Of a stretch of 20,558 nucleotides of DNA, positions 760 through 19,702 are shown piece by piece. Source of the stretch: Armatimonas sp. (GTDB taxonomy: Bacteria > Armatimonadota > Armatimonadia > Armatimonadales > Armatimonadaceae); the NCBI RefSeq assembly GCF_031410135.1, contig NZ_JANNYP010000607.1:1-20558 (forward strand), given 5' to 3'. Both the position numbers and the translations under genes were made by a program. Under the pieces are notes generated by a model that worked only from the letters and a program-made list of their open reading frames with translations, was not told the origin of the DNA and ran no database searches. The first letter of the stretch is position 1; each line of letters begins with the position of its first letter.

Positions 760-777
760 CGCCGCTTGAAAGCGGCG
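760..777 (+). terminator. GC-rich hairpin CGCCGC-ttgaaa-GCGGCG directly after the xylanase stop codon; possible intrinsic terminator (no T-tract)
   Basis: Perfect 6-bp inverted repeat with TTGAAA loop read directly from sequence. No U-run follows, which may be normal in GC-rich genomes. Confidence 0.3.
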
Positions 778-823
778 GGCGACAGTTCACAATGTCTTAA
801 TATTGCCGAACTAAACTACCCAC

Positions 824-2608
824 ATGAACACACTCTATCCTCTCACCTCTCTCGTCGCGCTGGTAGCGGCTCCTGCTCTGGCGCAGGCACAGACAGGTGC
901 TACGTTTTTCGGTCAGACGGAGGTGCATGTGGTGCATATTGCCCTCACCCAAGAGCAGTGGGACGGCATGAGCCCCACCCGTCCACAGGGCTTCGGGCCG
1001 ATGGACTTGCAGTTCCCTGAGGTCAAGTCTACGATCGCCGTCGATGGCAAAGAGTATGTCGTCGGGCTGCGCTTTAAGGGCAATTCAAGCTACATGAGCA
1101 GCTCCCGTGGGCTCAAGCGCCCCTTTAAGATTGACTTTAATCAGCACGTCAAGGGCCAAAGCCACGAAGGGATCACCAAGCTCAACCTCAATAACAACTT
1201 CTCGGACCGCACCCAGATTCGCGAGACCCTCGCCTACGAGATCTTCCGACGGATGGGTCTTCCCTCGCCGCGCACGACCATGGCAAAAGTGGGGATCACG
1301 CTAGGCGGGGAAGAAAAATCCCTGGGGCTCTACACCCTGGTGCAGCAAGTGGACTCCAGCTTTCTCAAAGAGCACTATGGCACGGGCGAGGGCATGCTCC
1401 TCAAGCCGGAGGGAGCCCGTGGGGGAATCACCTATCTGGGCGACGACTGGTCGCGCTACGAGACAGGCTACGACCCAAAGGGTAAACCAACCCCACAAGA
1501 GAAAACGCGTCTGATCGCCTTTGCCAAGCTCGTTCACCAGTCCGACGAGGCAACGTTCCAGAAAGAGATCGGCAATTTTCTGGACACCGAGGGCTTCGCG
1601 AAGTTTTTAGCCGCCACGGCGGTGACATCTAACGGCGACAATATGTTTGCGATGGGCCATAATTTTTATCTTTGGCTCAATCCCAAGACCAATAAATTTG
1701 TCTACCTGCCGTGGGACTTAAACATGGCCTTTGGGGGCTTCCCCATCGGCGACCCGATTCACCTATCGGTAAAGAAGCCCTACAACGGCGAGAGCAAGCT
1801 CACGGATCGTTTTCTGGCGATCCCCGAGTTCCGAGCGGCGTACAACAAGTCTTGTCGTGAGGGTGCCAAGATCATGACGGAGCTAGATGCCCTCCATGAC
1901 TCCACGGCAGCAGCAGCCAAGCCCATCATGGCCTTCGATCCTAAAGACTCTGGCGGAGGCTTCGGTCCAGGAGGCCCTGGTGGAGGAGGCCCCGGCGGGC
2001 CAGGCGGCGGTGGCCCCGAAGGTCAGGGTGGCCCGGGCGGGGGACGGCGTGGGGGCGGTGGGCCGGGTGGCCCCGGAGGGCCAGGCGGCATGGGTGGCAC
2101 CAACGACCTCAAGACCTTCTTTGCGCAGCGCTCTGCCTCTGTAATTGCACAGCTTGACGGCAAAGAAGAGGGCATTATCCCCCAAAGCGGCGGCCCCGGA
2201 GGGCCAGGCGGCCCGGGTGGCTTCGATCCCGCCCAGATGCTCGGAACAAGCTTCCTCCAGCTCACGGGGGCAGGTGAGGCTCCGACGCTCACGGCCTTCA
2301 ACGATGCCTGGAAGAAAGGCGCGGCATTCTGCGACAAGAATAAAGATGGCAAGCTGACCCAAGAAGAGCTAAACGCGGGCGTGAGCTCCGTCCTCGGCGG
2401 TGGCTTTGGGCCAGGGCAGTTTTTAGGGCCGCAGATTTGGAGCGCTCTGAAAGCCAAAGATAGCGTTCCGGTGGCGACCTTCACTGCAACGATGGCGCAG
2501 TGGGGCGTAAGCTGGGATAGCAACAAAGACGGGAAACTCACGGTTTCGGAGGTGGGGGCGGGCCTGATGCAGGTACTTCCCCCACCCAACGCCGGAGGAG
2601 GGTTCTAA
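824..2608 (+). CDS. Secreted CotH-family (spore-coat-protein-H-like atypical kinase) protein with Gly/Pro-rich low-complexity linker and two C-terminal EF-hand Ca-binding loops
   Basis: N-terminal signal peptide MNTLYPLTSLVALVAAPALAQAQ. Central region (FKIDFNQH...KLNLNNNFSDRTQIRETLAYEIFRRMGLPSPRTTMAKVGI...LGLYTLVQQVDSSFLKEHYG) matches my recollection of the CotH kinase-like domain. Gly/Pro-rich runs follow (GGPGGGGPGGPGGGG...). Two 12-residue loops, DKNKDGKLTQEE (nt 2333-2368) and DSNKDGKLTVSE (nt 2516-2551), fit the canonical EF-hand pattern D-x-N-x-D-G-x-[ILV]-x-x-x-E. Confidence 0.65.
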   Translation: MNTLYPLTSLVALVAAPALAQAQTGATFFGQTEVHVVHIALTQEQWDGMSPTRPQGFGPMDLQFPEVKSTIAVDGKEYVVGLRFKGNSSYMSSSRGLKRPFKIDFNQHVKGQSHEGITKLNLNNNFSDRTQIRETLAYEIFRRMGLPSPRTTMAKVGITLGGEEKSLGLYTLVQQVDSSFLKEHYGTGEGMLLKPEGARGGITYLGDDWSRYETGYDPKGKPTPQEKTRLIAFAKLVHQSDEATFQKEIGNFLDTEGFAKFLAATAVTSNGDNMFAMGHNFYLWLNPKTNKFVYLPWDLNMAFGGFPIGDPIHLSVKKPYNGESKLTDRFLAIPEFRAAYNKSCREGAKIMTELDALHDSTAAAAKPIMAFDPKDSGGGFGPGGPGGGGPGGPGGGGPEGQGGPGGGRRGGGGPGGPGGPGGMGGTNDLKTFFAQRSASVIAQLDGKEEGIIPQSGGPGGPGGPGGFDPAQMLGTSFLQLTGAGEAPTLTAFNDAWKKGAAFCDKNKDGKLTQEELNAGVSSVLGGGFGPGQFLGPQIWSALKAKDSVPVATFTATMAQWGVSWDSNKDGKLTVSEVGAGLMQVLPPPNAGGGF

Positions 2609-2610
2609 AA

Positions 2611-3273
2611 ATGAGCATCGAGGGCGAGATTGTCCGCGCCGGTTTTGAGCGCAAGTACCTGGTTCCTGAGAGCCTCGCGGAGAGCCTGCTCAGCGCCGTG
2701 CAAGCGATCCTCCCTCCCGATCCGTACGGGGGACGCTACTCGGTGGCAAGCCTCTATCTCGATACTCCTGACCTGGCTTCCTATCGCCGCGAGGTGCAGG
2801 GCAAGTGGCGGCTACGGCGCTATAGCACCACCGAGACGGTCTTTGCAGAGTTCAAGGCTAAACCGGAGCCAGGAAAAGTCCATAAGCGCCGCAGTGCACT
2901 CTCGTCAGATCAGCTCCCGGCGAGTCTCCCCGGCTGGTTTCAGAAAGCGATCCATAAACAAAGCCTCTCTCCCACACGCCTCGTCACCTACACCCGAGAT
3001 GCCTTTGTCGGGGAGCTGGGGGGCGAGGAAGTTCGCCTGACACTGGATCATGCCGTCCAAGCAAGCTCCCATCAGAGCCTCCACTTCCCCCCGTTTGACG
3101 GGGGCCAGGGGGTAGGATTCCCCCTCACCGAGGGGCGCATCCTAGAGATCAAGTACGAGTTCGCACTGCCCGCAGAGCTGGCAAAGCTCACCTCGGAGCT
3201 CGGCCTGCTCCCGGAGTCGTTCTCCAAGTACCGCACCGCGATAGAGAAAATCCCCCCGTCGGACGGGGGCTAG
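2611..3273 (+). CDS. VTC / CYTH-like (triphosphate-tunnel-metalloenzyme-related, polyphosphate-polymerase-type) domain protein
   Basis: Starts 3 nt after the CotH stop, so it is coupled to it. N-terminal FERKYLVP resembles the CYTH/VTC ExExK-type strand. VTC-domain genes are recurrent neighbours of cotH-family genes (recalled knowledge). Assignment by motif only. Confidence 0.45.
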   Translation: MSIEGEIVRAGFERKYLVPESLAESLLSAVQAILPPDPYGGRYSVASLYLDTPDLASYRREVQGKWRLRRYSTTETVFAEFKAKPEPGKVHKRRSALSSDQLPASLPGWFQKAIHKQSLSPTRLVTYTRDAFVGELGGEEVRLTLDHAVQASSHQSLHFPPFDGGQGVGFPLTEGRILEIKYEFALPAELAKLTSELGLLPESFSKYRTAIEKIPPSDGG

Positions 3274-3282
3274 GGGGCTAGC

Positions 3283-4968
3283 GTGTCCGAAGTCTGGCGG
3301 CTGGCGCGGCGGTTCTGGCCGCAGCTTTTGCTCTTGCTCTTGTTGGAGCTGCTCGGGGCGGGGCTGGCCGTGCTGGCTCCCATCCCGCTCCAGACCGCGC
3401 TGGATGTGGTGCTGCAAAAACGCGCCGCCCCCGCTTGGCTGGTGCCGTTCTCGGGAAGCGCCCTGCCCGCACTGTGTGCTGGCAGCCTGTTGGTGACACT
3501 TCTTGCCCAGGGCCAAGGCCTGGCAACGGCGCTGCTCTCCACGGGCCTCGGGCAGCGGCTCATTCGTGATCTGCGGGCGCGACTCTTTGCGGCGGCGCAG
3601 CGGCTCTCTCTGGCGCGGCATATTGAGCGCGGCACGACCGACACCCTCTACCGCATCCAGTCCGATGCCCAGTCTATTGAGTGGTTCTTGCTGGATGGAG
3701 CACTTCCGGTGCTCACAGCCATCACGACCCTGGCGCTGATGCTCACCGCGCTCTTTCGACTCGACACAAGCCTTGGCTGGGTCGGGGTGGCGCTGGGGCC
3801 TCCTCTGCTCTTAGCTGCGCGCGCTACTCGCCCTGGCTTGAAAGCGGCCTCGCGTGATGCCAAGCAGAAAGAGAGCGAGGCGCTGAGCATTGTGCAGGCC
3901 ACGCTGGGGGCGTTGACCAGTGTGAAGGCCTTCGGAATTGAGGACGCGCAGACGCAGCGCTTCGCGGAGGCATCGGAGAAGGCGGTGAAGGTGCGCCTGC
4001 GCATCGCACTCCTCGACGGGCTCTTTGGGATGGGAATCCAAACCCTGACGGCACTGGGGACGGCGGCGGCGCTCTACATCGGCGTGGCAGCGGCGCAGCG
4101 TGGAGTGCTCACCGTCGGCCAGGTGCTGCTAGGTCTGCACTACCTCAACCAGGTCTACAGCCCGCTGAAGACTCTGGGAAAGAAATGGGCGAGCCTGCAA
4201 AACCAAATGGCCGGGCTGGAGCGAGCAACAGCGCTTCTGACGGAGCCTGCGGAGGTGCCGACTCACCCAAACCCCACGCCACTTCCCCAGCCCGTGCGCG
4301 GTGAGCTTCGCTTTGAGAACATCGCCTTTGGCTACGACCCACGCCGCCCCGTTCTAGAAAACGTCAGCTTCACCGTCGCGCCCGGTGAGCGTATCGGGAT
4401 TGTCGGTGAGACGGGCAGCGGCAAGTCCACGCTGCTCTCGCTCCTGATGCGCCTCTACTCCCCCACCAGCGGCGAGATCTTCTTAGACGGCATCAAACTC
4501 ACGGAAATAGCACTTGCAGAGCTGCGGGCGCAGCTCGCGGTAGTTTTTCAAGAGACGGTTCTCTTGCCGGGGACGCTCGCCGAGAATATCGCGGTGGGAA
4601 AGCCGGGCGCGACACTCACCAAGATCGAGGCCGCCGCCAAAGCAGCGCAGCTCCACGAGGCTGTCCAGCGCTTCCCCGATGGCTACCAGACCAAAGTGGG
4701 CGAGCGCGGCGCAGCCCTCTCCGGCGGTGAGCGCCAGCGCGTCGGCCTCGCCCGTGCTTTCCTGCGCGATGCCCCGATCCTACTCCTAGACGAGCCCACC
4801 AGCGCTCTCGATGCGACGACTGAACAAGAGGTCCTCAGCGCCATGGAGCGCCTCATGGAGGGCCGGACGGTGCTGCTCGTCACCCACCGCGAGAGCGCCC
4901 TGCGTGGAATGCATCGCGTTCTTCTGGTTGAAAACCGAACCTTAGTAGCCCACTTCCCCCTACCTTGA
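3283..4968 (+). CDS. ABC transporter, fused permease/ATP-binding exporter (MsbA/type-I exporter family)
   Basis: GTG start 10 nt after the previous stop. N-terminal hydrophobic TM region. Walker A GETGSGKST, ABC signature LSGGERQRVGLARA, Walker B ILLLDEPTSALD, H-loop region LLVTHR. Confidence 0.9.
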   Translation: MSEVWRLARRFWPQLLLLLLLELLGAGLAVLAPIPLQTALDVVLQKRAAPAWLVPFSGSALPALCAGSLLVTLLAQGQGLATALLSTGLGQRLIRDLRARLFAAAQRLSLARHIERGTTDTLYRIQSDAQSIEWFLLDGALPVLTAITTLALMLTALFRLDTSLGWVGVALGPPLLLAARATRPGLKAASRDAKQKESEALSIVQATLGALTSVKAFGIEDAQTQRFAEASEKAVKVRLRIALLDGLFGMGIQTLTALGTAAALYIGVAAAQRGVLTVGQVLLGLHYLNQVYSPLKTLGKKWASLQNQMAGLERATALLTEPAEVPTHPNPTPLPQPVRGELRFENIAFGYDPRRPVLENVSFTVAPGERIGIVGETGSGKSTLLSLLMRLYSPTSGEIFLDGIKLTEIALAELRAQLAVVFQETVLLPGTLAENIAVGKPGATLTKIEAAAKAAQLHEAVQRFPDGYQTKVGERGAALSGGERQRVGLARAFLRDAPILLLDEPTSALDATTEQEVLSAMERLMEGRTVLLVTHRESALRGMHRVLLVENRTLVAHFPLP

Positions 4969-4999
4969 CAGAGCTTTCTCAAGCCGCGCACAATGGGCT

Positions 5000-5437
5000 A
5001 TGGCAACGGAAGATGAGACACGAGCCGAGGCCCTGCGCGGCATGGCCGATCCCGACCCACGCATCCGCGCCTACGCCACAGGGCTGCTGGATCACCTAGC
5101 GACGGACGCGTGCGTGGTACCACTCACCAAAGCCCTGTCCGATCCTTCTGCCCATGTCCGGCGGCTGGCGGTGCACGCGCTGGGCTGCCAGGACTGTAAA
5201 GCTGCGCCGCTGGACATCGACATTGTGGGCCTGCTGGTAGATCGTGCGCTGCATGACAAGAGCATCCGGGTGCGACGCGTCACCGTGCACCAGCTCGGTC
5301 TTCAGCCCCACGATCCCCGCGCCGTCTCCGCGCTGGAGAGCATTCTGGAGCACGACCACGATGAAAAGCTGCGCTCACGAGCGGCGTTTGCGCTCAAGAA
5401 TCAAACAGCAGAGTATAGTGTGGTAAAATCCCGCTGA
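5000..5437 (+). CDS. HEAT/PBS-lyase-like repeat protein
   Basis: Repeated units of the type D(P/x)xxxVRxxAxxALG (DPDPRIRAYATGLL, DPSAHVRRLAVHALG, DKSIRVRRVTVHQLG, DHDEKLRSRAAFALK). Confidence 0.6.
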   Translation: MATEDETRAEALRGMADPDPRIRAYATGLLDHLATDACVVPLTKALSDPSAHVRRLAVHALGCQDCKAAPLDIDIVGLLVDRALHDKSIRVRRVTVHQLGLQPHDPRAVSALESILEHDHDEKLRSRAAFALKNQTAEYSVVKSR

Positions 5438-6680: not shown

Positions 6681-9600
6681 CTACCCGCCGACCTTCACTT
6701 CGCCAATCGTCACGGTTTCTTTGTTCTGCGTGAGCCGTAGCGTCAGGTGCTGGCGCTTCTCGTTGGGCCGCCCGAAGTTGGTGATGACCGTCGCCTGAAC
6801 CGTAGTGCCGCCGGTGAGCTTCTGCTCGCCACTACCATAGTAGTTGGTCTGGATTTTATAGACACCGGGCACGGCGCGGCGGATCATGTAGTCCTCGGGG
6901 CCGTAGCCACTGGTGAAGTCTTTCGAGAGCTTGCCACCCACTTGTGTTAAGTTGTAGCTGTAAAAGCACTCCTCGCCCGTCGGCTCGATCACGTGCAAGT
7001 CCATGTCCGAGCTGTCCGAGTCCCAGGTCATGACAATGCGCACGTCGCACGCCTGGTTAGTGAGCAGGCGGCGGTCGAAGCGATGGCGAGCCAGCGGGTA
7101 CTTGGCGATAATCGCATTGGCCTCGGTGAGAGCGATGACCTCGATGCCCTCGAAGCGCTCCCAGTGGCGCATGACGACCGTATGGAGCAGCTCCAGCGCA
7201 CGCTCGGTCTGGCCCAAGTCGGCGAGCACGAGCGCTAAGTCGCGGTAGCTCTGCGGCTCCTCGGGGCGCATCTGTAGAATTTTCCCAAAGAGCCCGGCAG
7301 CGATCTGTTTCTCTCCCAGCTGTGCCAGTCGGTGGGCCAGCACGCGCAGCAGCGCCGCGTCCTCGATCTGCAAGTCCGCCAGCGACGACAGCACCCGCAA
7401 GCCTTCGTCGCGGCGGCCCAGCTGCAAGAGCAGCTCCGCACAGTCCAGATAGAACGCAGGTGTTGCCGCGTAGCTCTCGCGCTCTGCAAGATAGGCCGCA
7501 TAGGCTCCCGTCGCCCCCGCCGCCTTGAGCCGCTTCAAATACGGTGCATCGGGTGTCCACGCCTTAATGGTGACGCCCAAACCACTCTCCTCAGAACCAG
7601 TGGCGAGAATATTACCATCTTTAGCGACCATAACTCCCTGAGTCCGTCGGCTCAACGTGTAATCCCAGGCGGGTGTTGGCTCTGGCTGTGCGGTTCGAAG
7701 GCGTACTTCCTCACGTGCAGAAGTGGCCAGGGGTAGTAGAGCGGGAGCGGCGGGGCGAATTTCTCGTGTTACGGCACGATCAGCGACGACTCCGCCCAGA
7801 CTCCCACTTAAATCCGAGCCACCTCGTCCATTGCTCCCACTTCCGACTCTTGGGGAGGCGGCATGTTTCTTCTTCTCGTCTTTTGGTTTTGCAGTGCGCG
7901 GGAACTCTTTCTTCCACCAAGCCATGCGCTCGTTCCACTGCGCCAAGACGCTCTGGAGCTGCTTTTCGTCCTTGGTGCGCTTTGTGTCTTTCTCCGTTTT
8001 CTCTCGGCCCAGCCAGGCATCGTAGAGCGCGGGGCGGGTGCGGGGCGGGGTGATATTGTGCTCGACATACTGCTCCAGGGACTCCAGAACCAGCAGCGAC
8101 GTTCCCGGCGTGACCAGGTTAAAGTCTCGGCCCAGCGACAGTAGCGCCTCGTGGTTTTCATCGGGCAGCAGCGCCAGACGCTCCACACGCTGCGCGGCCC
8201 ACTGGCGGGCGATGAGGCCATGAGCCGTGGTAGTGGTGCGCTTGACCGTCACCGTGCGCCGGGAGACGGGCTGTCCCCCCATGCCATAGACCAGCGTGAG
8301 GTCGGCGCTATCCGTGAGCAAGCGGCCCGTGACAAGCCCGTCTTGCCACTGAAGATCTGTAGCGCCCTGGCCCTCCACGCGAAGTAGCGTCACGCCTGGT
8401 CTGCCAAGAGCCTCGGGGTGGGTGCCGTCGCTCAGCGCACCGCCGGTCTGCTCACAGAAGTAGCGTAGCAGGCCAAAGTTTGTTCCCGACGCAGTGGCGA
8501 TGGCGTAGATAGGCGTGTTGGCCGCAATGGTCGGGAGTCCCTGCCCAAGATTGGAAAAACCATCCGTAAACCAGAGCCAGTAGTCGCGGTGGGGCAGGTT
8601 CAGAGCCCCCAGTGCCGTTCCCCCATCGAAGGGCTGCGCTTTCAGAAACGCGATCAGCTCACGGGCATCGCCGTTGGCAATCTTGAACTTGCGCGGCTTC
8701 TCGGCCCGCTCCCGCAAGACAATCACCTCAACAGCAACGGATTTTCCGGCCAGGTGCTGCCCCAACAGCGTCAGCTCCTTGCCAATATCGGCCTTGTGGC
8801 GGCTCAGGCTCGCATCCCAGACAATCCCGATGTCACGAGGCGCTACCCGCTCAAGCTTCACCTGCGGCGGCGTGTCGGCGATGCAGAAAAACGTCTCCGG
8901 GCGCGGGCTACTGGCACGCATGAAGCTCTCGCTTGCCACCATGGGCTCACCACTCTCGGGAACCGTGATCGTTATATCCTGCTCGGCGCTGTTTTCCAGA
9001 ACGGCCTCAGCAGTCAGGTGCCCCTCGACGCGCCCGAGCTCCAGTGCTCGCTTGCCCAGAAGCACACGGGCCTGAGGTGCGCTCAACACCTCCACGGTCA
9101 CTTTCCCCTCGGGAATATTGGTTCCAAAGCGCAGTGGGATGGTTTTCTTATCCGTGCTGTAGGTAATGCGCACCGTGCGAGCACCTTCGGCGGGAAACGG
9201 GTAGATGCGCGTCCGAAAGACATTGCCCTCCAGCCGCTCCAGAAGGCCGGGGTCTACGCCCTTGCGCACTTCTTTCTCAAAGACCACGCGGGCTTTCTCT
9301 CTCTCCACCGGCACTGCGTCCACCAGCTCGCCTTTGACATCCAGCGCAAACCCGGAGACCGCCGCGCCCTCGGGCAAGGGAAAAATCAGCTCACCCTCCA
9401 GAACGCGCTTGGACGGATTGCGAAACGTGAGCGTCTGCGTCACTTGCGTTAGCGACCCTACCACCGTGATCTGAACATCGGCCCGCTCCAGCCGTACAGG
9501 AGCCTCTTTCGTCTCTTTTTCTTCGCCCTTCACCGTAAACTGAATCGGGGCAAGCGGCGGCGCTTGCTGGTGCGCAGCAGGCGCAAATTGTGTTGTGGCC

Positions 9601-9692
9601 GCAAGGGCACAGAGGGATAGGGCAAAGGCAGTGAGGCGCATCGAATTGTTTTCTCCTGCGCTTTTGTCCTCCGCAACGGCCAAAAGGTTCAT
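6681..9692 (-). CDS. Large secreted multidomain protein: N-terminal VIT domain, vWA domain, central TPR repeats, conserved C-terminal beta-rich domain (YfaP/DUF2135-like, tentative). Probable true start at ATG 9641.
   Basis: A signal-peptide-like MRLTAFALSLCALAATTQFAPAAHQ begins at the internal ATG (9641-9639), which is preceded by GGAGAA 9 nt upstream. VIT-like N-terminus (IQFTVKGEE...VLEGELIFPLPEGAAVSGFALDV...NVFRTRIYPFPAEG). vWA-like block (IGIVWDASLSRH...PFDGGTALG...LWFTDGFSN). TPR-like helical repeats (AYAAYLAERES...LGRRDEGLRVLSSLADL...ERALELLHTVV). C-terminal segment DVRIVMTWDSDSSDMDLHVIEPTGEECFYSY...GPEDYMIRRAVPGVYKIQTNYYGS. Confidence 0.6.
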   Translation of the reverse strand: MNLLAVAEDKSAGENNSMRLTAFALSLCALAATTQFAPAAHQQAPPLAPIQFTVKGEEKETKEAPVRLERADVQITVVGSLTQVTQTLTFRNPSKRVLEGELIFPLPEGAAVSGFALDVKGELVDAVPVEREKARVVFEKEVRKGVDPGLLERLEGNVFRTRIYPFPAEGARTVRITYSTDKKTIPLRFGTNIPEGKVTVEVLSAPQARVLLGKRALELGRVEGHLTAEAVLENSAEQDITITVPESGEPMVASESFMRASSPRPETFFCIADTPPQVKLERVAPRDIGIVWDASLSRHKADIGKELTLLGQHLAGKSVAVEVIVLRERAEKPRKFKIANGDARELIAFLKAQPFDGGTALGALNLPHRDYWLWFTDGFSNLGQGLPTIAANTPIYAIATASGTNFGLLRYFCEQTGGALSDGTHPEALGRPGVTLLRVEGQGATDLQWQDGLVTGRLLTDSADLTLVYGMGGQPVSRRTVTVKRTTTTAHGLIARQWAAQRVERLALLPDENHEALLSLGRDFNLVTPGTSLLVLESLEQYVEHNITPPRTRPALYDAWLGREKTEKDTKRTKDEKQLQSVLAQWNERMAWWKKEFPRTAKPKDEKKKHAASPRVGSGSNGRGGSDLSGSLGGVVADRAVTREIRPAAPALLPLATSAREEVRLRTAQPEPTPAWDYTLSRRTQGVMVAKDGNILATGSEESGLGVTIKAWTPDAPYLKRLKAAGATGAYAAYLAERESYAATPAFYLDCAELLLQLGRRDEGLRVLSSLADLQIEDAALLRVLAHRLAQLGEKQIAAGLFGKILQMRPEEPQSYRDLALVLADLGQTERALELLHTVVMRHWERFEGIEVIALTEANAIIAKYPLARHRFDRRLLTNQACDVRIVMTWDSDSSDMDLHVIEPTGEECFYSYNLTQVGGKLSKDFTSGYGPEDYMIRRAVPGVYKIQTNYYGSGEQKLTGGTTVQATVITNFGRPNEKRQHLTLRLTQNKETVTIGEVKVGG

Positions 9693-9843: not shown

Positions 9844-10281
9844 ATGCTACAATACGTAGTGCCCGAGGATAACAACACTCTCGCCGCCGAAGCAAGCCAG
9901 CAAGACTCGCCTGAACAGAAAGTTCGCATCGTCGTGCTGGTTGAGGCTAGTGGAGCATGCCCGTTCGAGGATTGGCTCTATGGCTTGCGGGATCGTGCGG
10001 CTCAGGTGCGGCTCTTGATACGACTTCTGCGGATCGCCGAGCAAGGCAACTTTGGTTCTCATCGAGAGCGGATCAGCGGTGCGGTGAGTGAGCTAAAGCT
10101 AGACTATGGCCCCGGTTATCGTGTCTATTTTGTGCGACAGGGCGATACGCTGGTGATTCTGCTGGGCGGGGGAGTCAAGGCAAGCCAGCAGCGCGATATT
10201 GTGTCGGCAGTGGCACTGTGGGAGAGGAATAAAGACGATGCTGAAAGATTTTCGCGCGAGTTTCGCACCCCTGCTGAGTGA
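9844..10281 (+). CDS. Type II toxin, RelE/ParE superfamily (addiction-module killer, HigB-like); real start probably the internal GTG at 9934 (about 115 aa)
   Basis: EDWLYGLRD...LLIRLLRI...G..GSHRERISGAVSELKLDYGPGYRVYFVRQGDTLVILLGGGVKASQQRDI matches the recalled family pattern (..WL..LRD..ar.ri..Ri.rl..Gn.Gd...vg.gvsELridyGPGYRvyf...g...viLLcGGdKssQ..DI). Family members are about 100 aa; the first ~30 codons of the ORF have no counterpart. Confidence 0.7.
   Translation: MLQYVVPEDNNTLAAEASQQDSPEQKVRIVVLVEASGACPFEDWLYGLRDRAAQVRLLIRLLRIAEQGNFGSHRERISGAVSELKLDYGPGYRVYFVRQGDTLVILLGGGVKASQQRDIVSAVALWERNKDDAERFSREFRTPAE
9845..9853 (+). promoter_or_regulatory. Extended -10 promoter element TGcTACAAT upstream of the toxin-antitoxin pair
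   Basis: Sequence tgcTACAAT at 9845-9853. No good -35, but TGn extended -10 promoters do not require one. It overlaps the first ATG of the 145-aa ORF, arguing that ATG is not the true start. Confidence 0.3.
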
Positions 10282-10531
10282 CCCAGAGTTCCAGCGGGAG
10301 TTTCTGGCGGCTCTCTACGAAGAGAAAGGTGCTGAAGGGATTTTCGAGGGTCTGCGGGAGATCGCAACCGCCACCAAGAAAATGCCTGAGATCGCGGAGT
10401 CAGCGGGTGTAGCCCGCACGAGCCTCTACCGCTCGCTCTCGCTAGGAGGAAACCCGAACTTCAAGACCGTACGAGCCGCGCTCAACACACTCGGGATGGA
10501 CTTTGCCATCGTCCCCAAGAAAGCCGCGTAG
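10238..10531 (+). CDS. Type II antitoxin, HTH-domain addiction-module antidote (HigA-like partner of the killer-protein family)
   Basis: The internal ATG at 10238 is preceded by GGAGAGGA about 10 nt upstream (ORF track starts earlier at 10199). Overlaps the toxin 3' end by 44 nt. HTH-like segment IAESAGVARTSLYRSLS; about 97 aa; typical toxin-then-antidote order for this family. Confidence 0.65.
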   Translation: MLKDFRASFAPLLSDPEFQREFLAALYEEKGAEGIFEGLREIATATKKMPEIAESAGVARTSLYRSLSLGGNPNFKTVRAALNTLGMDFAIVPKKAA

Positions 10532-10720
10532 GCTGCACTGCTTCATCTGGATAGAGGCGACAGTTTATCAGCCGCGTCGTAGGTGTAGCTGCGAGACGCG
10601 CTGTAGCTGGCCATGCCTGTGCGACTCTTGAAAGACAGCGCAGTAGCGCGAGCGGCGTTTCTTCTGCCCAAGACCCGCCCCTCCCGTGGCTAGCCAAGAG
10701 GCTGTATACTAGCAGCATCC

Positions 10721-11944
10721 ATGCTGTTTTTGGCTCTGCTGATCCTGATCGCCTTGCTGGTCTTGCTCTTTACGCCGATCCTTCCGATGCGACGGCGACG
10801 TGGGGGTGTGGCGGGTTTTCCGTTCGTGACGGTGGGGCTTCTGGCGATCAACACGATTGTTTTCCTCGGGAGCATGAGCAGTGGCGAGGAGTTTATCCGG
10901 CAGTGGGCACTGGTGCCCAACGACCTTCAGCTTGCTTCCCTCCTGAGCTATGCCTTCCTCCACGGCGATATTTTTCATCTCCTAGGCAACCTGATCACGC
11001 TCTATGTGATCGGAGTGCACGTGGAGGAAGCGCTGGGCAACCTCCCCTACCTACTGGCCTACCTGGCCGGGGCGCTGGTGGCGGGACTCGGGCACGCGGG
11101 AGCGGTTCTGCTCTTTTTTCCCGGCTCCGCAGGGACTCCCATGGTCGGTGCCTCCGGGGCGATCTTCTGTGTCTTAGGGCTCTTTGCCGTGCGTTTTTGG
11201 CGAACTCGCGTCCGGCTTTTCTGGATTCCAGCGGTTCCGGCAGCCGTGGCAGTCGGGATTGTGATGGTTCTCCAGATCTTCATGGCGATTCGCTCTTTAG
11301 TGGACCATGGAGCGGACCAGGTGGCCTATGCCGCGCACCTGATTGGCTTCTTCTTCGGCTTTGGGATCGCCTTCCCTCTCCGCGTCTTGGAGCAGAGCGC
11401 CCGTGAGTACGGGATCGAGGACGCCGAGAAGGCACTGGCGGCGGGCGACCTGACCACGGCGGCAGGCTACTACCGCGAGCTACTCGTCCGCACGCCGACA
11501 GACGGCGGCCTGGCCCACACACTCGCGCTGGTGCATGTCCGCCTCGGGGAGCAAGAGGCGGCGCACCGCTACTTCACGCAGGCTCTGGACTTGTTCTCCA
11601 AGCAAGGAAACGCCGCCGCGGTGGCCCGAATCTACAGCGATGCTCAGACCAATCTGTTGCGCGTCTCCCTTCCGGTGCGCCTCTTGCAGCGGGTGGCCAG
11701 CGCCTGTGAAGATGCCCAGCAGTACGAGCTGGCCCGTCAGGCGCTGGCCAATCTCTGCCGCGACTTCACCCACACCACCGATGCTGAGCTAGGAATGCTA
11801 AAATTGGGTAAACTGCACCTACAGAAGCTAGGACAGCGCGACAACGCCTTAGCGATCTTTGCGGAGTTCCTACGGCTCTACCCCACGTCTGAGTGGGCAA
11901 ATCATGTTCGAGGATTGATTACGGAAAACCAGAATGCTTCTTGA
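10721..11944 (+). CDS. Rhomboid-family intramembrane serine protease fused to C-terminal TPR repeats
   Basis: Multiple TM segments. Rhomboid signature HGDIFHLLGNL (TM2 region), catalytic Ser in GASGAIFCVLG and catalytic His in AHLIGFFFG. C-terminal ~170 aa has TPR-like repeats (AAGYYRELL...AHTLALVHVRLGEQEAAHRYFTQAL). Confidence 0.8.
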   Translation: MLFLALLILIALLVLLFTPILPMRRRRGGVAGFPFVTVGLLAINTIVFLGSMSSGEEFIRQWALVPNDLQLASLLSYAFLHGDIFHLLGNLITLYVIGVHVEEALGNLPYLLAYLAGALVAGLGHAGAVLLFFPGSAGTPMVGASGAIFCVLGLFAVRFWRTRVRLFWIPAVPAAVAVGIVMVLQIFMAIRSLVDHGADQVAYAAHLIGFFFGFGIAFPLRVLEQSAREYGIEDAEKALAAGDLTTAAGYYRELLVRTPTDGGLAHTLALVHVRLGEQEAAHRYFTQALDLFSKQGNAAAVARIYSDAQTNLLRVSLPVRLLQRVASACEDAQQYELARQALANLCRDFTHTTDAELGMLKLGKLHLQKLGQRDNALAIFAEFLRLYPTSEWANHVRGLITENQNAS

Positions 11945-12701
11945 CCCCGAGTTTTTGCAAAAGCTGGCCACAGTGCTCCCCAACAGCGAGACGGGTGAGG
12001 CACACTCTAGCCGCACCACGCGCCGCACTCCCCGAAGCGACTCTCTCTTCCGGCTGGGGCGACGTGCCGAGCCCACCCGAAAATCCTCCCGCTTTGAGCG
12101 CATGCTGGCTCGCCTGCTGCGGCTGGAGACCACCTCGCTTCATGTTTTACTGGACGCCTCACTGGCCATGACGTTCGCGGGCTACACTCCCCCCGAGCCC
12201 TCGCAAAAGTTCGATTTTGCCCGGCGCTTCACCGCCATGCTTGGCTATGCCACCACCCAGCGCGACCTGCGCTTTGAGGTCACCGCCCTCTCTCCCGCGC
12301 GCGGCACACGGAGCCCCATTGTCCAGCACCCCGAGGACATCTCCCAGCTCCTAGACTATCTGGAGAAGCTCCGGGCGGGCGGGACGCGCAACTTTGCCTG
12401 GGCGCTCCGCAAGCGGATGCGCCGTAGCTCGCGACGCTCGCTGTTTATCCTGCTCTCCGACTTTCGGGATCGCAACTGGGAGTGGGGTGCCCCTGCGCTC
12501 TTAACGGGTGAAGCCCGTGTGGTGCTGGTTCATCTGATGGACCGCTCCGAGCTGCAAGAGAGCAGCCACGGACTACGGCTCGAAGACGACATCCGCCAGC
12601 GCCTCGCCGAGCTTGCCCAGCGCTACCAGCTAGAGTATCTCATCGTCCCCACTGACACGCCCCTCGAAGAAGCCTTTCTCCACGCCGCCGGGGATCGCTA
12701 A
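11934..12701 (+). CDS. vWA-like / DUF58-like domain protein (degenerate MIDAS)
   Basis: Overlaps the rhomboid gene by 11 nt. HVLLDASLAM (DxSxS-like), AGGTRNFAWAL (GGT...AL) and LFILLSDFRD (vWA strand plus acidic residue) resemble the vWA fold as seen in DUF58 proteins. The upstream DUF58 GDD/IDW region is not recognisable. Confidence 0.4.
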   Translation: MLLDPEFLQKLATVLPNSETGEAHSSRTTRRTPRSDSLFRLGRRAEPTRKSSRFERMLARLLRLETTSLHVLLDASLAMTFAGYTPPEPSQKFDFARRFTAMLGYATTQRDLRFEVTALSPARGTRSPIVQHPEDISQLLDYLEKLRAGGTRNFAWALRKRMRRSSRRSLFILLSDFRDRNWEWGAPALLTGEARVVLVHLMDRSELQESSHGLRLEDDIRQRLAELAQRYQLEYLIVPTDTPLEEAFLHAAGDR

Positions 12702-13823: not shown

Positions 13824-14477
13824 ATGGACGAGATCACGGTTCTGCTCACCGACGATCACGCGATTGTGCGTCAGGGAGTTCGGGCGTTTCTGGAGACCCA
13901 GTCGGATATTAAAGTCGTGGGTGAGGCGGGCAGTGGCGAAGAGGCCATCCAGCTCTGTGAGGCCCTCGCCCCGGATATCGTGCTGATGGACCTACTCATG
14001 CCCGGAATGGGGGGAGTGGAAGCCACACGGCGGGTAAAGGCGATTAGCCCTCGCACCCGGGTGATTGTCCTAACCAGTTATCATGAAGATGAGCACGTGC
14101 TTCCCGCGATTCGTGCAGGGGCACTCTCCTACTTACTCAAAGACGTGGCGGCGGGTGAGATTGCCACGGCGATTCGCAAAGCAGCAGCGGGGGAAGTCAC
14201 CCTCTCTCCGGCGATTGCCGCGCAGATGATGAAAGCAGTCACGGGGGAACGTAAGTCACCCGAGGCCCCTGGCCCGGAGTCGCCGTTGACAGTCCGGGAG
14301 CGGGAAGTGATTCGTCTGATTGCTGATGGGCTCTCGAACACCGAGATCGCAGAGAGGCTGTTCCTCTCGGAGAAAACCGTCAAGAGCCACGTCAGCAATA
14401 TCCTCGCTAAGCTCCATGTCACAGACCGCACGCAGGCGGCGGTCTATGCATGGCGCGAAGGCATCATGACCCGCTAG
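13824..14477 (+). CDS. Response regulator, NarL/FixJ family (REC domain plus LuxR-type HTH)
   Basis: ATG immediately follows the kinase TAA. REC motifs LLTDDH, phospho-acceptor region IVLMDLLMPGM, KAISPRTRVIVLTS. C-terminal LuxR HTH LTVREREVIRLIADGLSNTEIAERLFLSEKTVKSHVSNILAKL. Confidence 0.9.
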   Translation: MDEITVLLTDDHAIVRQGVRAFLETQSDIKVVGEAGSGEEAIQLCEALAPDIVLMDLLMPGMGGVEATRRVKAISPRTRVIVLTSYHEDEHVLPAIRAGALSYLLKDVAAGEIATAIRKAAAGEVTLSPAIAAQMMKAVTGERKSPEAPGPESPLTVREREVIRLIADGLSNTEIAERLFLSEKTVKSHVSNILAKLHVTDRTQAAVYAWREGIMTR

Positions 14478-15226
14478 CGACCGAAGCCACCGAAGCCGCC
14501 CATTCCGCCTCCCATACCACCGCCCATACCGCCCATACCACCGCCCATACCACCCATCATACCGCCGCCACCCATGCCACCCATGCCGCCGCCCATGCCA
14601 CCCATGCCGCCGCCCATGCCACCCATGCCGCCGCCCATCATGCCGCCCATGCCGCCGCCCATGCCGCCCATGCCGCCACCCATGCCACCCATGCCGCCGC
14701 CCATGCCGCCCATGCCACCACCACCCTGCATAGCTCGACTGGAGAAGGAGACATTAATAATCCCTCCTAATATCTGGCTTAAGTCCATCGGATCAAGATA
14801 GGTGAGGCTAATGCGCTCGTAGGCCGCATTTGGCCGAATGATTTCATCGGGTCCTATCGGAGCAGGTGCTGAGTCCTGAGGATTAGGATTGATCGCACGA
14901 GGCTTGACAATCCAGACACCGTTTTCTTTGGTGTAGGTAAGAGGCACACTAGCTGCACGCATGATCAGCTTCAGTGCATTCTCAAAGGGCTGCTCTGTAA
15001 TCTTAAGCGTGACAAATCCCACAACATTATTGTCAATGATATAGTTATTAATGCCTGCTTGCTTGAACGCAGCCTCAATCGTAGAACGAATGGGCGAGTC
15101 TTGCAGGTCAAAAGTAACATTATTTAATTTTTCTTGTGCAAATGCGCTCATAGGAAGAACAATTGCAATAGCAGATAACACCGCCCCAGCGGCAAATTTC
15201 CCGGTAAAATTCACTTTTTTCCTCAT
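14474..15226 (-). CDS. Sec-secreted STN/secretin-N-like domain protein with ~90-residue C-terminal Gly-Met repeat tail, (GGGMGGM)n
   Basis: Signal peptide MRKKVNFTGKFAAGAVLSAIAIVLPMSAFA|QEK. NVTFDLQDSPIRSTIEAAFKQAGINNYIIDNN..VTLKITEQPFENALKLIMRAASVPLTYTKENGVWIV matches the secretin-N/STN short domain pattern (VxLDLxDxPLxxALxxLAxQxGLNxxIDPxVxGxVTLxLxNVPxxQALDLILRxNGLxYxxEGNIIxV, recalled). The C-terminal tail is only G and M (plus a final GFGGFGR). Its stop codon overlaps that of the convergent response regulator (CTAG). Confidence 0.7.
   Translation of the reverse strand: MRKKVNFTGKFAAGAVLSAIAIVLPMSAFAQEKLNNVTFDLQDSPIRSTIEAAFKQAGINNYIIDNNVVGFVTLKITEQPFENALKLIMRAASVPLTYTKENGVWIVKPRAINPNPQDSAPAPIGPDEIIRPNAAYERISLTYLDPMDLSQILGGIINVSFSSRAMQGGGGMGGMGGGMGGMGGGMGGMGGGMGGMMGGGMGGMGGGMGGMGGGMGGMGGGGMMGGMGGGMGGMGGGMGGGMGGFGGFGR
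14490..14740. repeat. Tandem 21-nt-period DNA repeat (unit approximately CCCATGCCACCCATGCCGCCG on the plus strand) encoding the Gly-Met tail
   Basis: Units read directly from sequence. Early copies use CCATACC, later copies CCATGCC. The period corresponds to the 7-aa GGGMGGM unit. Confidence 0.8.
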
Positions 15227-15329
15227 CTTCTAAATACGAACAGTTTACTACTCGTATTCTAAACAAATTGGACACGAGGAAAGTTCATTCCTTCAAATTA
15301 TTTTTATTTTTTTCTAAAAAACAAATCGT

Positions 15330-15860
15330 CTAAAGCGACGAAAGTACATTTAAAAGCACGGGTAGCTGAAGATACGGTAGCTCAGGCGAGGTGAGTATCC
15401 CTGAGTAGAGGGCCGGTGGCGTTCCAGGAGGCACTTGAAGAATCAACTGTACAGTTTGAATGGCATCGGGCGCTAGCTGAAAAACCGCTGAAGAGGGCAG
15501 AAGTTGCTCGGGTTCAATACGATTTCCCGCCGCGCTCAGCAGCGGCGTACTTCGCAGGATAAACGTCACCGGGTCGGCTTGGTCGTTGTGCAGACGAAAG
15601 GGCAAGGCAACGTGCTCCCCCGCACGAACAGGCAGAGCGGGCATGAGGCTGTGGCGTGCCAAGGTCGGCAAGGCTCCTCGTGCGACCTCGGTGTCTAAGA
15701 TGGAGGAAGCCACTTCCAAGAGATCTTGCGGAAGCTCGGGCGCTGCCGCAGGCTCGGTCGGCTCGATAGCGTCACTAGGCTCCAGAGGCACCAGCGTGCG
15801 GCTCCGGTAGGTAGCCAAAGGGGTACAAACGTCGAGGGGTTTTCGTCGGTAGGTCTGCAT
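15330..15860 (-). CDS. Hypothetical protein, last gene of the encapsulin-associated operon
   Basis: Its ATG (15860-15858) lies 1 nt after the polyprenyl synthase TAA (TAAGATG). No recognisable motifs. Pro/Leu-rich; C-terminal half is beta-like (HVALPFRLHNDQADPVTFILRSTPLL...AVFQLAPDAIQTVQLILQVPPGTPPALYSGIL). Confidence 0.45.
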   Translation of the reverse strand: MQTYRRKPLDVCTPLATYRSRTLVPLEPSDAIEPTEPAAAPELPQDLLEVASSILDTEVARGALPTLARHSLMPALPVRAGEHVALPFRLHNDQADPVTFILRSTPLLSAAGNRIEPEQLLPSSAVFQLAPDAIQTVQLILQVPPGTPPALYSGILTSPELPYLQLPVLLNVLSSL

Positions 15861-15861
15861 C

Positions 15862-16890
15862 TTAAGAGTTCCGTGAGATCATGTAGCCGATCAAGTCTGA
15901 GAGAAACGTGCGGTGCTCCGAGGGGCCAGCGTCGGCAAAGGCTTGCTCAAAGGCATCCAGGGTGGCCTGGACAAAGCGCTCCGAGACGGCCTGGGCATGT
16001 GTGATACTGCCGTAGTGGGTCATGCGCTCCAGAATCCACGCGACATCGTCGGCACTGCGCTGTGGGCGGGTCTGTGCCAGAAAGCCTTCAAGACGCTCCT
16101 GCTCACTGCGACTTGCGTGCTGAAGCAAGTGCACCAGCATCAGCGTGCGCTTCCCCTCCCAGAGGTCGCCACCGATCTCTTTGCCGTAGCTCTTGTCATC
16201 GCCCACTAAGTTGAGCACATCGTCTTGGATCTGAAACGCCACACCCATAAAGTAGCCAAAGCGATTGAAGACATTGAGGTCTAGCCGATCTTTGCGAGCG
16301 ATCAGCGCCCCGATGCGACACGGATGGATAAAGCTGTACCAGCAGGTCTTCTTGAGGATCATCTCCAGGTAGTCGGCCTCGGTGACCGTGATGTCGTTGT
16401 CGCGTATCCAGCCCAGCTCCAGTGCCTGGCCTTCCAGCGACTGCAAGAGAAGGTGCTCAAACTCCTCGATAATGCGCCAGGTCAGTGGTCCCCCCAGCGT
16501 CGGGAGATTCTCTCGCACCAGCTTGAGGCTGAGCATGTTGAGCGCATCGCCCGCGTTTACGGCCAGCGGCATCCCGTACTGTGCCATCATCGTGGGCTGG
16601 GTGCGCCGAAACTCGCTCCCGTCTTCCACATCGTCGTGGACGAGAAACGCATTGTGGAGCATCTCCAGCGCCACAGCGGACTTGAGTGCCTCTTCCTCAG
16701 AGCCACCAAATGCCCCGCAGGTCGCCAGGCAGAGTGCCGGGCGCAGGCCCTTTCCTCTCCGCGCTAGGTGTTCGGCCATCGGGCCATAGAGATAGCGCTG
16801 GGGCTCGCGTGTGGGCAGCGCCGCCAGCAGGCCCGCCTGGATCAGCTCTCCGTAGTGCGCAAGCCGCTGGCGTAGAAGCTCCGTGGTCAC
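15862..16890 (-). CDS. trans-Isoprenyl (polyprenyl) diphosphate synthase family protein
   Basis: First Asp-rich motif LVHDDVEDGSEFRRTQPT (DDxxD...RR) and second motif GVAFQIQDDVLNLVGD (DDxxN variant). About 340 aa, typical for the family. GTG start overlaps the upstream stop (GTGA). Confidence 0.8.
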   Translation of the reverse strand: MTTELLRQRLAHYGELIQAGLLAALPTREPQRYLYGPMAEHLARRGKGLRPALCLATCGAFGGSEEEALKSAVALEMLHNAFLVHDDVEDGSEFRRTQPTMMAQYGMPLAVNAGDALNMLSLKLVRENLPTLGGPLTWRIIEEFEHLLLQSLEGQALELGWIRDNDITVTEADYLEMILKKTCWYSFIHPCRIGALIARKDRLDLNVFNRFGYFMGVAFQIQDDVLNLVGDDKSYGKEIGGDLWEGKRTLMLVHLLQHASRSEQERLEGFLAQTRPQRSADDVAWILERMTHYGSITHAQAVSERFVQATLDAFEQAFADAGPSEHRTFLSDLIGYMISRNS

Positions 16891-19687: not shown

Positions 19688-19702
19688 AGCGATTAGGAAG
19701 AA

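Follow-up and report, generated by a model that had tools for sequence, protein, structure and literature searches.

What membrane protein does a secreted kinase of the CotH family need beside a VTC-type enzyme, and what would such a protein do? The CotH-VTC-DUF4956 gene trio is widespread and has been linked to biofilm aggregation in streptococci, and its function is unexplained. In Gram-positive pel operons, CotH, 'poly-phosphate polymerase' (VTC) and DUF4956 genes are accessory genes, together with DUF4832 (Whitfield et al., 10.1101/768473 = PMC7112168); S. intermedius carries CotH, VTC and DUF4956 genes as SIR_1592-1594 (PMC12345266), and NELoc-2 of C. perfringens has a similar cluster of VTC, a 'tubulin-like membrane protein' and CotH (PMC2879425). 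The window analysed here, a stretch of 20,558 nucleotides from Armatimonas sp. (Armatimonadota), a diderm, raises this question in another form: on its + strand, at 824-4968, three ORFs encode CotH (824-2608), VTC (2611-3273) and an ABC exporter (3283-4968).

The three genes are separated by 2 nt (CotH/VTC) and 9 nt (VTC/ABC), both gaps being read directly from the sequence and agreeing with the first-pass annotation, and CotH and VTC adjoin as they do in the CotH-VTC-DUF4956 neighbourhood. Upstream lies a partial ORF (30-758) with a GH10 match (Pfam, E 4.6e-30). Just 3' of its stop codon the sequence contains a perfect 7-bp hairpin (CGCCGCT-TGAA-AGCGGCG, 760..777, + strand) that may mark a transcript boundary 5' of the cassette; it lacks a T-run, and the terminator scan did not pick it up. 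A promoter-like site (TTGAAA, 16-nt spacer, CACAAT; 766..793, + strand) is located 30 nt 5' of the CotH start codon and is a weak candidate, with 9/12 consensus matches in the consensus scan. The GH10 gene had suggested a polysaccharide-degrading context; it does precede the cassette here, but no relative has GH10 adjoining the cassette and the upstream genes all differ, so that this context does not hold. On the other side, a gene for a small cytoplasmic HEAT-repeat protein of 145 aa (5000..5437, + strand; Pfam HEAT_2, E 2e-15) has a promoter-like site of its own at 4965-4994 (consensus scan) and follows the ABC gene in the closest relatives only (L002/L003, 80% identity), being absent elsewhere; it is probably not a core part of the cassette and possibly a lineage-specific accessory. 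Nor is an APH-like kinase gene conserved at the relatives' cassettes.

The CotH-VTC-ABC triad recurs, as had been anticipated, in more than 20 Armatimonadota contigs (L002/L003, L004, L007, the P0042 contig, L009, L010, L012, L015-L019, L037-L040, L042-L046), with VTC proteins that are 43-89% identical and with unrelated flanks; the order is therefore not a chance one. CotH orthologues are present at every triad locus. VTC and ABC diverge from their window counterparts in step (89/93, 67/82, 55/77, 54/76 and 45/48% identity), and the adjacency of the two is kept down to 43% (VTC) and 47% (ABC) while all flanks change. The genes at these loci either overlap, as VTC and ABC do by 16 nt in the clade at 44% identity, or lie 9-70 nt apart.

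What is missing from all of these loci is DUF4956. An HMM of our own, built from five Pfam-verified DUF4956 proteins and run on six-frame translations, placed DUF4956 directly after VTC in 12/12 non-Armatimonadota genome loci and in 14 of the 16 metagenome loci with enough downstream sequence (n=26 DUF4956-bearing VTC loci in the non-Armatimonadota phyla sampled), and it gave no match in the window or at any of the Armatimonadota loci sampled. Since not one sampled locus has both (0 loci), ABC exporter and DUF4956 are mutually exclusive and the exporter appears to have displaced DUF4956. The two claims from which the analysis started, that a CotH-VTC-DUF4956 neighbourhood exists and that an exporter here replaces its membrane partner, are thus borne out, the one by published work (10.1101/768473, PMC12345266) and the 26 loci, the other clade-wide in Armatimonadota. 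All ABC-linked loci come from this single phylum, and the association may go back to one evolutionary event. The locus does not invariably include the exporter, since at L008, also from Armatimonadota, CotH and VTC are followed by a GDSL lipase gene with no exporter adjacent. At L005/L035 the genes follow a second layout: VTC, GtrA, NAGPA phosphodiester glycosidase, TM protein, ABC, CotH. An apparent ABC-CotH fusion elsewhere is an assembly frameshift rather than a true fusion.

It is probable that CotH, VTC and ABC act together as a unit, with the exporter in the place of DUF4956, and the cassette is an Armatimonadota-specific, so far undescribed version of the published CotH-VTC-membrane-partner module known as pel accessory genes. 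Both versions adjoin genes for a secreted CotH, a stand-alone VTC and an integral membrane protein, with function unexplained in both. The membrane partner among the pel accessory genes is DUF4956, a protein with four TM segments in which the S. intermedius authors describe an MgtC-like domain in the membrane and an ACT domain in the cytoplasm (PMC12345266); that of the cassette is a 561-aa ATP-driven ABC exporter. The two versions differ also in that the cassette CotH has EF-hand loops in place of the FN3 domain, and in the diderm host. Among the Pfam matches of the larger window ORFs scanned there is no Pel or DUF4832 family.

The CotH gene (824..2608, + strand) encodes a kinase-family protein of 594 aa, matched by Pfam CotH (PF08757; E 6.7e-47, 161 bits, cut-off 23.8) over a kinase domain at aa 82-348 (1067..1867) and by B. 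cereus CotH (5jd9) with E 2.5e-18. As PF09359 likewise recovers the second ORF (E 1.6e-23), the CotH and VTC assignments of the first-pass annotation stand. So does its view of CotH as secreted: in the translation, a Sec-type signal peptide without a lipobox Cys (aa 1-20/22, ...APALA/QA/Q, 824..889, + strand) forms the N-terminus, MNTLYPLTSLVALVAAPALAQAQ, and CotH orthologues also have short hydrophobic N-termini. Alignment to 5jd9 identifies catalytic Asp272 ('SNGDN', nt 1637-1639) and metal-binding Asp298 ('PWD', nt 1715-1717), which fall on two Asp of 5jd9 that are 23 residues apart; in B. subtilis CotH the corresponding residues, D228 and D251, have catalytic roles (PMC7821199). All of 20 CotH sequences share D272, and every ABC-linked CotH keeps 'PWD', so the active site looks intact at the sequence level. 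Beyond the kinase domain, a Gly/Pro-rich low-complexity linker (aa 377-425, 1952..2098; within aa 371-470, which include the linker, 44% of residues are Gly) leads to a C-terminal region with two predicted EF-hand-type Ca2+-binding loops (2333..2551), DKNKDGKLTQEE at 2333-2368 and DSNKDGKLTVSE at 2516-2551. The EF-hand_1/5/6 matches are just under the Pfam cut-offs (24.9 vs 25), and the region weakly matches the XopAW Ca-binding effector. The Bacillus spore-coat Ser/Thr kinase CotH (5jd9/5jda) is of the same Pfam family and shares both catalytic Asp, but the match extends over ~230 residues only, and Bacillus CotH has no VTC link, signal peptide, Gly-rich linker or EF-hand tail, all of which the cassette CotH has. 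It acts, moreover, in the ATP-containing cytoplasm of the mother cell.

The second gene (2611..3273, + strand) encodes a stand-alone VTC/TTM tunnel enzyme of 220 aa, a putative Vtc4-like polyphosphate polymerase (Pfam VTC over aa 13-212, 84 bits, cut-off 23). Its translation has no signal peptide, no hydrophobic segment and no other Pfam match, and thus neither an SPX nor a transmembrane domain, leaving a cytoplasmic protein that consists of the tunnel domain only. A profile of 20 VTC homologues matches yeast Vtc4 (E 1.3e-9), with K15, R67/R69, E179/K181 and S205/K206 aligning with Vtc4 tunnel residues (K200, R264, R266, E426, K458 and neighbours), the functional role of which was reportedly described by Hothorn and colleagues in 2009. 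The aligned residues are invariant across the 20 homologues, which share 33 invariant columns in all, and this active site, too, looks intact. The AF2 model (pLDDT 92.1, pTM 0.88) is a closed beta-barrel tunnel fold whose best Foldseek PDB matches are 3g3r/3g3q/8i6v (E 2e-11 to 2e-10, TMq 0.61-0.73), with ygiF and the CYTH cyclases ranking below Vtc4. By itself, the VTC profile recovers 5,165 cluster representatives (E<=1e-10); we know of no bacterial stand-alone VTC protein that has been found, by assay or structure, to make polyP.

The third gene (3283..4968, + strand) encodes an ABC half-transporter of 561 aa that presumably forms a homodimer. A TMD (aa 15-295, nt 3325-4167; Pfam ABC_membrane, E 3.8e-34), with TM1 beginning at residue ~15, is fused in a single protein to an NBD that begins at aa 358 (ABC_tran, E 1.1e-37), and a motif search located, on the + strand, Walker A GETGSGKST (4405-4431), the signature LSGGERQR (4717-4740), Walker B ILLLDEPTS (4777-4803) and the H-loop (4873-4890). 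With all ATPase motifs intact, this is type IV ABC exporter architecture, and the TMD-NBD layout is that of MsbA, the NdvA/ChvA glucan exporter and the cyanophycin-associated ABC, the best NCBIfam similarities (~300-336 bits). The earlier label 'MsbA-type' is therefore right for the fold class, but not for the MsbA equivalog TIGR02203 (335.8 bits against a cut-off of 602); the protein is under the cut-off of every NCBIfam equivalog, and several unrelated exporter families score nearly alike. Compared with MsbA-like type IV exporters, it lacks a C39 peptidase domain and a nearby membrane-fusion or outer-membrane partner, and its partner set of CotH and VTC is unique. A type I secretion or bacteriocin exporter was rejected, for there is no C39 peptidase match and neither the window nor the relatives have a neighbouring gene of HlyD/TolC type. 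Nothing in the exporter hints at a polyanionic substrate, and its conserved TMD residues give no clue to the cargo.

We propose that the cytoplasmic Vtc4-like enzyme would build a phosphoanhydride product from ATP at the inner membrane face, most likely (short-chain) polyphosphate, that the exporter, spending ATP, would carry this product to the periplasm, and that the Sec-secreted, Ca2+-binding CotH, residing in the periplasm or on the cell surface, both devoid of an ATP pool, would use or act on it, phosphorylating envelope proteins or glycans. To this full mechanism we assign a probability of about 0.35. The data establish gene order, tight coupling, domain identity, intact catalytic residues, the opposite compartments of VTC and CotH, and the exclusivity of ABC and DUF4956; from these we infer the chemistry of the VTC product, its carriage by the exporter and its use by CotH, and a supply of phosphoryl donor to an extracytoplasmic CotH by VTC and exporter would fit both the topology and the gene displacement. 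Against the proposal counts that, to our knowledge, no protein-kinase-fold enzyme takes polyP as donor, and that 5jd9 and 5jda are presumably nucleotide complexes; L008, the confinement of ABC-linked loci to one phylum, an exporter with no hint of a polyanionic cargo and the want of a bacterial stand-alone VTC known to make polyP weigh against it as well. In the yeast VTC complex (Vtc4 tunnel plus Vtc1/2/3 channel; 3g3q, 7ytj, 8i6v), which shares the tunnel fold and its basic and acidic tunnel residues with the cassette VTC, synthesis at the cytoplasmic face is linked with transfer across a membrane, the same logic as that proposed here. However, yeast VTC has SPX and transmembrane domains and threads polyP through its own channel, whereas the cassette VTC is without both and its putative partner is a separate ABC transporter. 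In S. intermedius, mutants in the CotH gene (SIR_1594) and in the membrane-partner gene (SIR_1592) have a common phenotype, the mechanism of which the authors left open (PMC12345266), and bacterial polyP export is itself an open question (PMC13484657). It is conceivable, if somewhat doubtful, that stand-alone bacterial VTC and a dedicated translocator (DUF4956 in most phyla, ABC in Armatimonadota) make up an unrecognised pathway that makes and exports polyP as phosphoryl donor for secreted CotH.

Perhaps the exporter carries the acceptor and not the donor, such that a lipid-linked glycan, polysaccharide or peptide is phosphorylated outside by CotH while the phosphate chemistry of VTC is separate. 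The L005/L035 architecture would suit such a role, with GtrA and NAGPA phosphodiester glycosidase genes between VTC and ABC-CotH and with the nearest relatives of its ABC found among LPS-core glycosyltransferase and Kdo-kinase genes, as would the attachment of the Firmicutes module to the pel exopolysaccharide operon and the similarity to MsbA and glucan exporters. However, the window-type cassette has no glycan-synthesis gene, all NCBIfam exporter equivalogs are far under cut-off, and the exporter replaces DUF4956 specifically, the gene directly after VTC, a position that ties the membrane partner to VTC and not to a glycan pathway. We consider acceptor export unlikely.

The odds are lower still for a role in phosphate economy and not in signalling or modification, in which case polyP or heavily phosphorylated envelope polymers would form an extracytoplasmic phosphate reserve that Pho-regulon phosphatases mine in starvation. 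In the freshwater clade at 44% identity, a PHO4 transporter gene precedes the cassette, and an OmpR-family RR/HK pair (PhoB being the second-best match, under cut-off) follows it, succeeded by convergent genes for a PhoD alkaline phosphatase and a glycerophosphodiester phosphodiesterase. Such neighbours are confined to this one closely related lineage (RR 93-96% identical), where shared ancestry can explain the synteny, and they are absent from the window and the 54-89% relatives; the need for a kinase-fold protein would also go unexplained.

It is improbable that the exporter supplies nucleotide (ATP) to the periplasm for a conventional ATP-dependent CotH, with VTC as a regulator or a triphosphatase/polyP sink and not as the maker of the donor. 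Eukaryotic secretory-pathway kinases do depend on ATP import, and the TTM enzymes include triphosphatases and cyclases, as the fold matches illustrate, but we know of no bacterial ABC exporter that exports ATP. The sole CotH characterised so far is a protein kinase for Ser/Thr whose active site is of the usual kinase kind (PMC7821199), which favours this reading; yet the cassette VTC, with its full set of polymerase tunnel residues, is nearer to Vtc4 than to the TTM hydrolases or cyclases. That the exporter is a general efflux or housekeeping protein, co-transcribed by chance and functionally unrelated to CotH and VTC, is no less improbable, for although ABC half-transporters of its class are abundant and promiscuous in genomic location and L008 has none, overlapping or closely spaced genes, adjacency that outlasts all flanks, and a position exactly where DUF4956 is missing speak against it.

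By retaining CotH and VTC but exchanging DUF4956 for an exporter driven by ATP, the Armatimonadota have performed a natural experiment, and the swap argues that the job of the membrane partner is to transport something connected with VTC from the cytoplasm to the compartment of CotH. The proposed polyP supply to CotH turns a vague neighbourhood into a concrete, testable hypothesis of polyP synthesis, export and extracytoplasmic phosphorylation, and ABC exporters are far easier to assay than a DUF. It bears on the source of extracellular polyP in bacteria and on the phosphoryl donor of secreted bacterial kinases: if such a polyP-donor pathway is true, it would explain how kinases work in an ATP-free compartment and would provide bacteria with a PPK-independent source of extracellular polyP.

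The CotH (824-2608), VTC (2611-3273) and ABC exporter (3283-4968) genes follow one another on the plus strand of the window as three open reading frames, with gaps read off the sequence of 2 nt between CotH and VTC and 9 nt between VTC and ABC. Pfam searches recover a CotH domain (E 6.7e-47, aa 82-348), a VTC domain (E 1.6e-23, aa 13-212) and, in a single 561-aa protein, ABC_membrane together with ABC_tran. The ORFs, gaps and Pfam matches thus bear out the three-gene cassette that the first-pass annotation had proposed, and the triad is found again in other Armatimonadota loci. A homologue search with the window VTC returned 47 proteins, and gene order could be followed from close to distant relatives: CotH-VTC-ABC(-HEAT) in loci L002 and L003 (VTC 89% identical to that of the window), CotH-VTC-CotH-ABC in L004 (67%), CotH-VTC-ABC in L007 (55%) and a 604-aa ORF-VTC-ABC in the contig of protein P0042 (43%), where the 604-aa ORF has no Pfam match and its relatives L015, L016 and L019 have CotH at that position. 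The flanking genes of these loci are wholly unlike one another. A scan of GTDB species genomes with a 12-sequence VTC alignment, the loci being annotated by tblastn, gave 11 Armatimonadota loci, and ABC directly follows VTC, or a second CotH paralogue (L012), in nine; the sequence of L014 ends 263 nt past VTC, and L011 has no ABC match across the 1.3 kb past its CotH paralogue, where its sequence ends. The metagenome scan added 10 loci from a clade with 43-46% VTC identity, 9/10 with ABC and one truncated. Identity to the window declines in parallel for VTC and ABC (89/93, 67/82, 55/77, 54/76 and 45/48%), and the two genes overlap by 16 nt in the 44%-identity clade. The single exception is L008, where CotH-VTC precedes a GDSL lipase gene with no adjoining exporter. 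The cassette is a real, non-chance arrangement. Its other neighbours do not belong to it: HEAT occurs only in the closest relatives and an APH-like kinase in none, both proteins being cytoplasmic. The partial GH10 xylanase ORF upstream (30-758, Pfam) had suggested a polysaccharide-degrading context, which we abandon, as GH10 adjoins the cassette in no relative examined.

In the Planctomycetota, Proteobacteria, Acidobacteria and Bdellovibrionota loci, the ORF after VTC encodes DUF4956, a membrane protein recognised by Pfam. By an HMM made from five of these proteins, DUF4956 immediately follows or overlaps VTC in each of the 12 genome loci from outside the Armatimonadota and in 14 of the 16 metagenome loci whose sequence extends far enough past VTC. 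The same HMM found no match in six-frame translations of the window and of every Armatimonadota locus, and none of the loci examined has both an ABC exporter and DUF4956. This is non-orthologous displacement, with the ABC exporter in Armatimonadota and DUF4956 elsewhere, and because it is clean and clade-wide, the proposal that the membrane partner is replaced proves correct for the whole clade and not for this contig alone. We put at roughly 0.8 the probability that the three genes make up a single unit in which ABC substitutes for DUF4956. The cassette is a phylum-specific version, itself new, of a module already known, rather than something categorically new. Indeed, Gram-positive pel operons have been described with adjoining accessory genes for CotH, a "poly-phosphate polymerase", DUF4956 and DUF4832 (10.1101/768473). 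In S. intermedius, deletion of CotH or of the membrane-partner gene reduces Pel-dependent aggregation by a mechanism that the authors describe as undetermined, and they note that pel loci were the only places where they found the synteny (PMC12345266). The C. perfringens NELoc-2 locus likewise encodes VTC, a membrane protein annotated "tubulin/FtsZ" and CotH (PMC2879425). Our literature search found no characterisation of a bacterial VTC protein and no ABC-linked version of CotH.

The 220-aa VTC protein has neither a signal peptide nor a hydrophobic segment, and it is identical to an NCBI entry annotated "polyphosphate polymerase domain-containing protein". Among 20 homologues (33-89% identity), 33 columns are invariant, their charged residues alternating as in a triphosphate tunnel. 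The profile of these 20 sequences matches yeast Vtc4 (E 1.3e-9), aligning Vtc4 K200 with K15, R264/R266 of the RLR motif with R67/R69, LEVK (E426) with E179/K181 and FSKF (K458) with S205/K206. A confident AlphaFold model (pLDDT 92.1, pTM 0.88) has as its top PDB folds the Vtc4 polyphosphate polymerase structures 3g3r, 3g3q and 8i6v (E ~1e-10 to 1e-11, TMq 0.61-0.73), ahead of E. coli ygiF and of CYTH cyclases and triphosphatases. Yeast VTC subunits carry SPX and transmembrane domains, whereas the window protein has neither. The VTC family is large: of 1.84 billion cluster representatives searched, 11,714 match its profile at E<=1e-3 and 5,165 do so at E<=1e-10, and the best 150 matches are nearly all stand-alone proteins of ~200-340 aa. 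One partial 219-aa metagenomic protein (P0043), 84% identical to the window VTC across one third of its length, has both Pfam GGDEF (PF00990) and VTC; its 791-bp contig may encode a fusion of diguanylate cyclase and VTC, or may join two separate genes into one.

CotH, in turn, is a secreted protein, as the first reading had it: its N-terminus, MNTLYPLTSLVALVAAPALAQAQ, is a Sec-type signal peptide with no lipobox, and the N-termini of its orthologues are similarly hydrophobic. B. cereus CotH (5jd9) aligns to the kinase domain (E 2.5e-18), and Asp272 ("SNGDN") and Asp298 ("PWD") match two Asp residues of 5jd9 that are spaced 23 residues apart, the same spacing as that of D228 and D251 in B. subtilis CotH, whose mutation abolishes activity (PMC7821199). 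D272 is shared by all 20 CotH sequences drawn from the loci, and "PWD" is present in all ABC-linked copies. C-terminal to the kinase domain lies a Gly/Pro-rich linker (aa 377-425), followed by two EF-hand-type loops, DKNKDGKLTQEE and DSNKDGKLTVSE, which score slightly below the Pfam EF-hand cut-offs. A C-terminal dockerin was considered and rejected, given these sub-threshold matches, the lack of any dockerin match and loops lying ~60 residues apart. Some Armatimonadota cassettes have a second, divergent CotH paralogue between VTC and ABC (L004 2948-4768; L012 9667-11478; L011 ~10101-11450), 31-35% identical to the window CotH over the tblastn match and with an EF-hand loop N-terminal to its kinase domain.

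The exporter combines TMD and NBD in a half-transporter whose Walker A, Q-loop, signature, Walker B and H-loop motifs are all intact. Its best NCBIfam scores are to MsbA (336 bits) and a cyanophycin-associated ABC protein (335), with HlyB-type exporters at 302 and glucan exporters at ~230-300 bits, and every one of these scores falls far under the equivalog cut-off. No C39 domain was found in the protein, no membrane-fusion or outer-membrane partner was seen, and the conserved charged residues of the TMD, viewed without three-dimensional mapping, gave no clue to the substrate.

Why would these proteins be encoded together? As judged from sequence, the phosphoanhydride-handling enzyme (VTC) is cytoplasmic and the kinase-fold enzyme (CotH) is exported, and between or beside their genes, L008 excepted, lies one for a membrane protein, either DUF4956 or an ATP-driven exporter. 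Given this layout, the simplest reading is that the product of VTC would have to cross the membrane to reach the compartment of CotH. By analogy with yeast, where the VTC complex couples polyphosphate (polyP) synthesis to translocation through its own channel (structures PDB 7ytj and 8i6v), that product is most likely polyP. CotH might then take its phosphoryl group from polyP, or it and polyP might jointly act on envelope proteins or glycans. Here we infer three steps, namely what VTC makes, what the exporter carries and which donor CotH uses. Since we know of no kinase-fold enzyme that uses polyP, the full scheme of polyP export for CotH is a tentative proposal, with the odds somewhat against it. 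According to a 2026 preprint, B. cereus has PPK-independent extracellular polyP with no known export route, and no VTC4 homologue (PMC13484657).

An alternative to polyP as cargo is that the exporter handles a glycan acceptor. This would be in keeping with a second architecture (L005 10001-16907; L035 3-5821), in which VTC (59% identical to that of the window in L005) is followed, in this order, by GtrA, a NAGPA-type phosphodiester glycosidase, a transmembrane protein of 227/244 aa with no Pfam match, and an MsbA-like ABC gene that is translationally coupled to the gene for a signal-peptide CotH. The gene order points to a link to phosphodiester-containing surface glycans, and relatives of the L005 ABC protein lie within LPS-core loci. 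L005 appears to encode a 1242-aa ABC+CotH protein, a fusion that, had it held, would have argued strongly that the two genes are functionally linked. We reject it as an assembly frameshift artefact: of 1,103 homologues it is the only one fused, its contig belongs to a series of long-read assemblies with other genes visibly broken up, and the expected "...EP" ending with its stop is regained in another frame right after a C7 homopolymer. In L035, a short-read contig 81-83% identical to L005, ABC and CotH are separate genes with an ATGA overlap. ATP synthase genes are broken into several short ORFs in a long-read metagenome assembly (L033 1-7000); frameshifts seem common in that data set, and its fusions and truncations are therefore to be distrusted. 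A link of the cassette to a Pho regulon is a minor alternative. In the 43-46% freshwater clade, an OmpR-family RR/HK pair follows the cassette, and convergent genes for a PhoD alkaline phosphatase and a glycerophosphodiester phosphodiesterase come next on the opposite strand (L019 4862-9565; also L038, L040, L042, L044, L046 and the P0042 contig, which has a PHO4 phosphate transporter upstream). This synteny is real in one clade, but it carries little weight because the close relatedness of the loci (RR 93-96% identical) can explain it.

The rest of the window holds genes of other kinds. A minus-strand gene (6681-9692) encodes a 1003-aa protein with VIT, TPR and C-terminal DUF2135 domains, weakly similar to sortase/exosortase-target VIT proteins. 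On the plus strand, a RelE/ParE-type toxin with an overlapping antitoxin (9844-10531; HI1419 family 92 bits, above cut-off; HI1420-type 53.6 bits, at cut-off) precedes a rhomboid protease fused to TPR repeats (10721-11944), which overlaps a DUF58 protein gene (11934-12701). A low-GC island (14474-15860, minus strand, ~0.505) holds two orphan ORFs, one of 250 aa weakly like a PilQ/HofQ secretin N-terminus and one of 176 aa with no match. Four tightly packed minus-strand genes (15862-20557) encode a polyprenyl diphosphate synthase (15862-16890; 194 bits to "family 2 encapsulin cargo polyprenyl transferase", cut-off of 450 not reached), an HpnE/phytoene-desaturase-like flavoenzyme (16887-18755), an encapsulin-like shell protein (18752-19687; Linocin_M18 E 5e-18; NCBIfam encap_f1 83 bits, cut-off of 100 not reached) and DUF3237 (19703-20557, truncated at the end of the window), and may form an encapsulin-associated isoprenoid operon. 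At the far end the GC content drops to 0.48-0.52.

As a whole, then, the earlier interpretation of the cassette is supported in part. The displacement of DUF4956 by an ABC exporter suggests that the membrane partner functions in transport, and the exporter offers a tractable system for probing extracytoplasmic polyP and phosphorylation chemistry.
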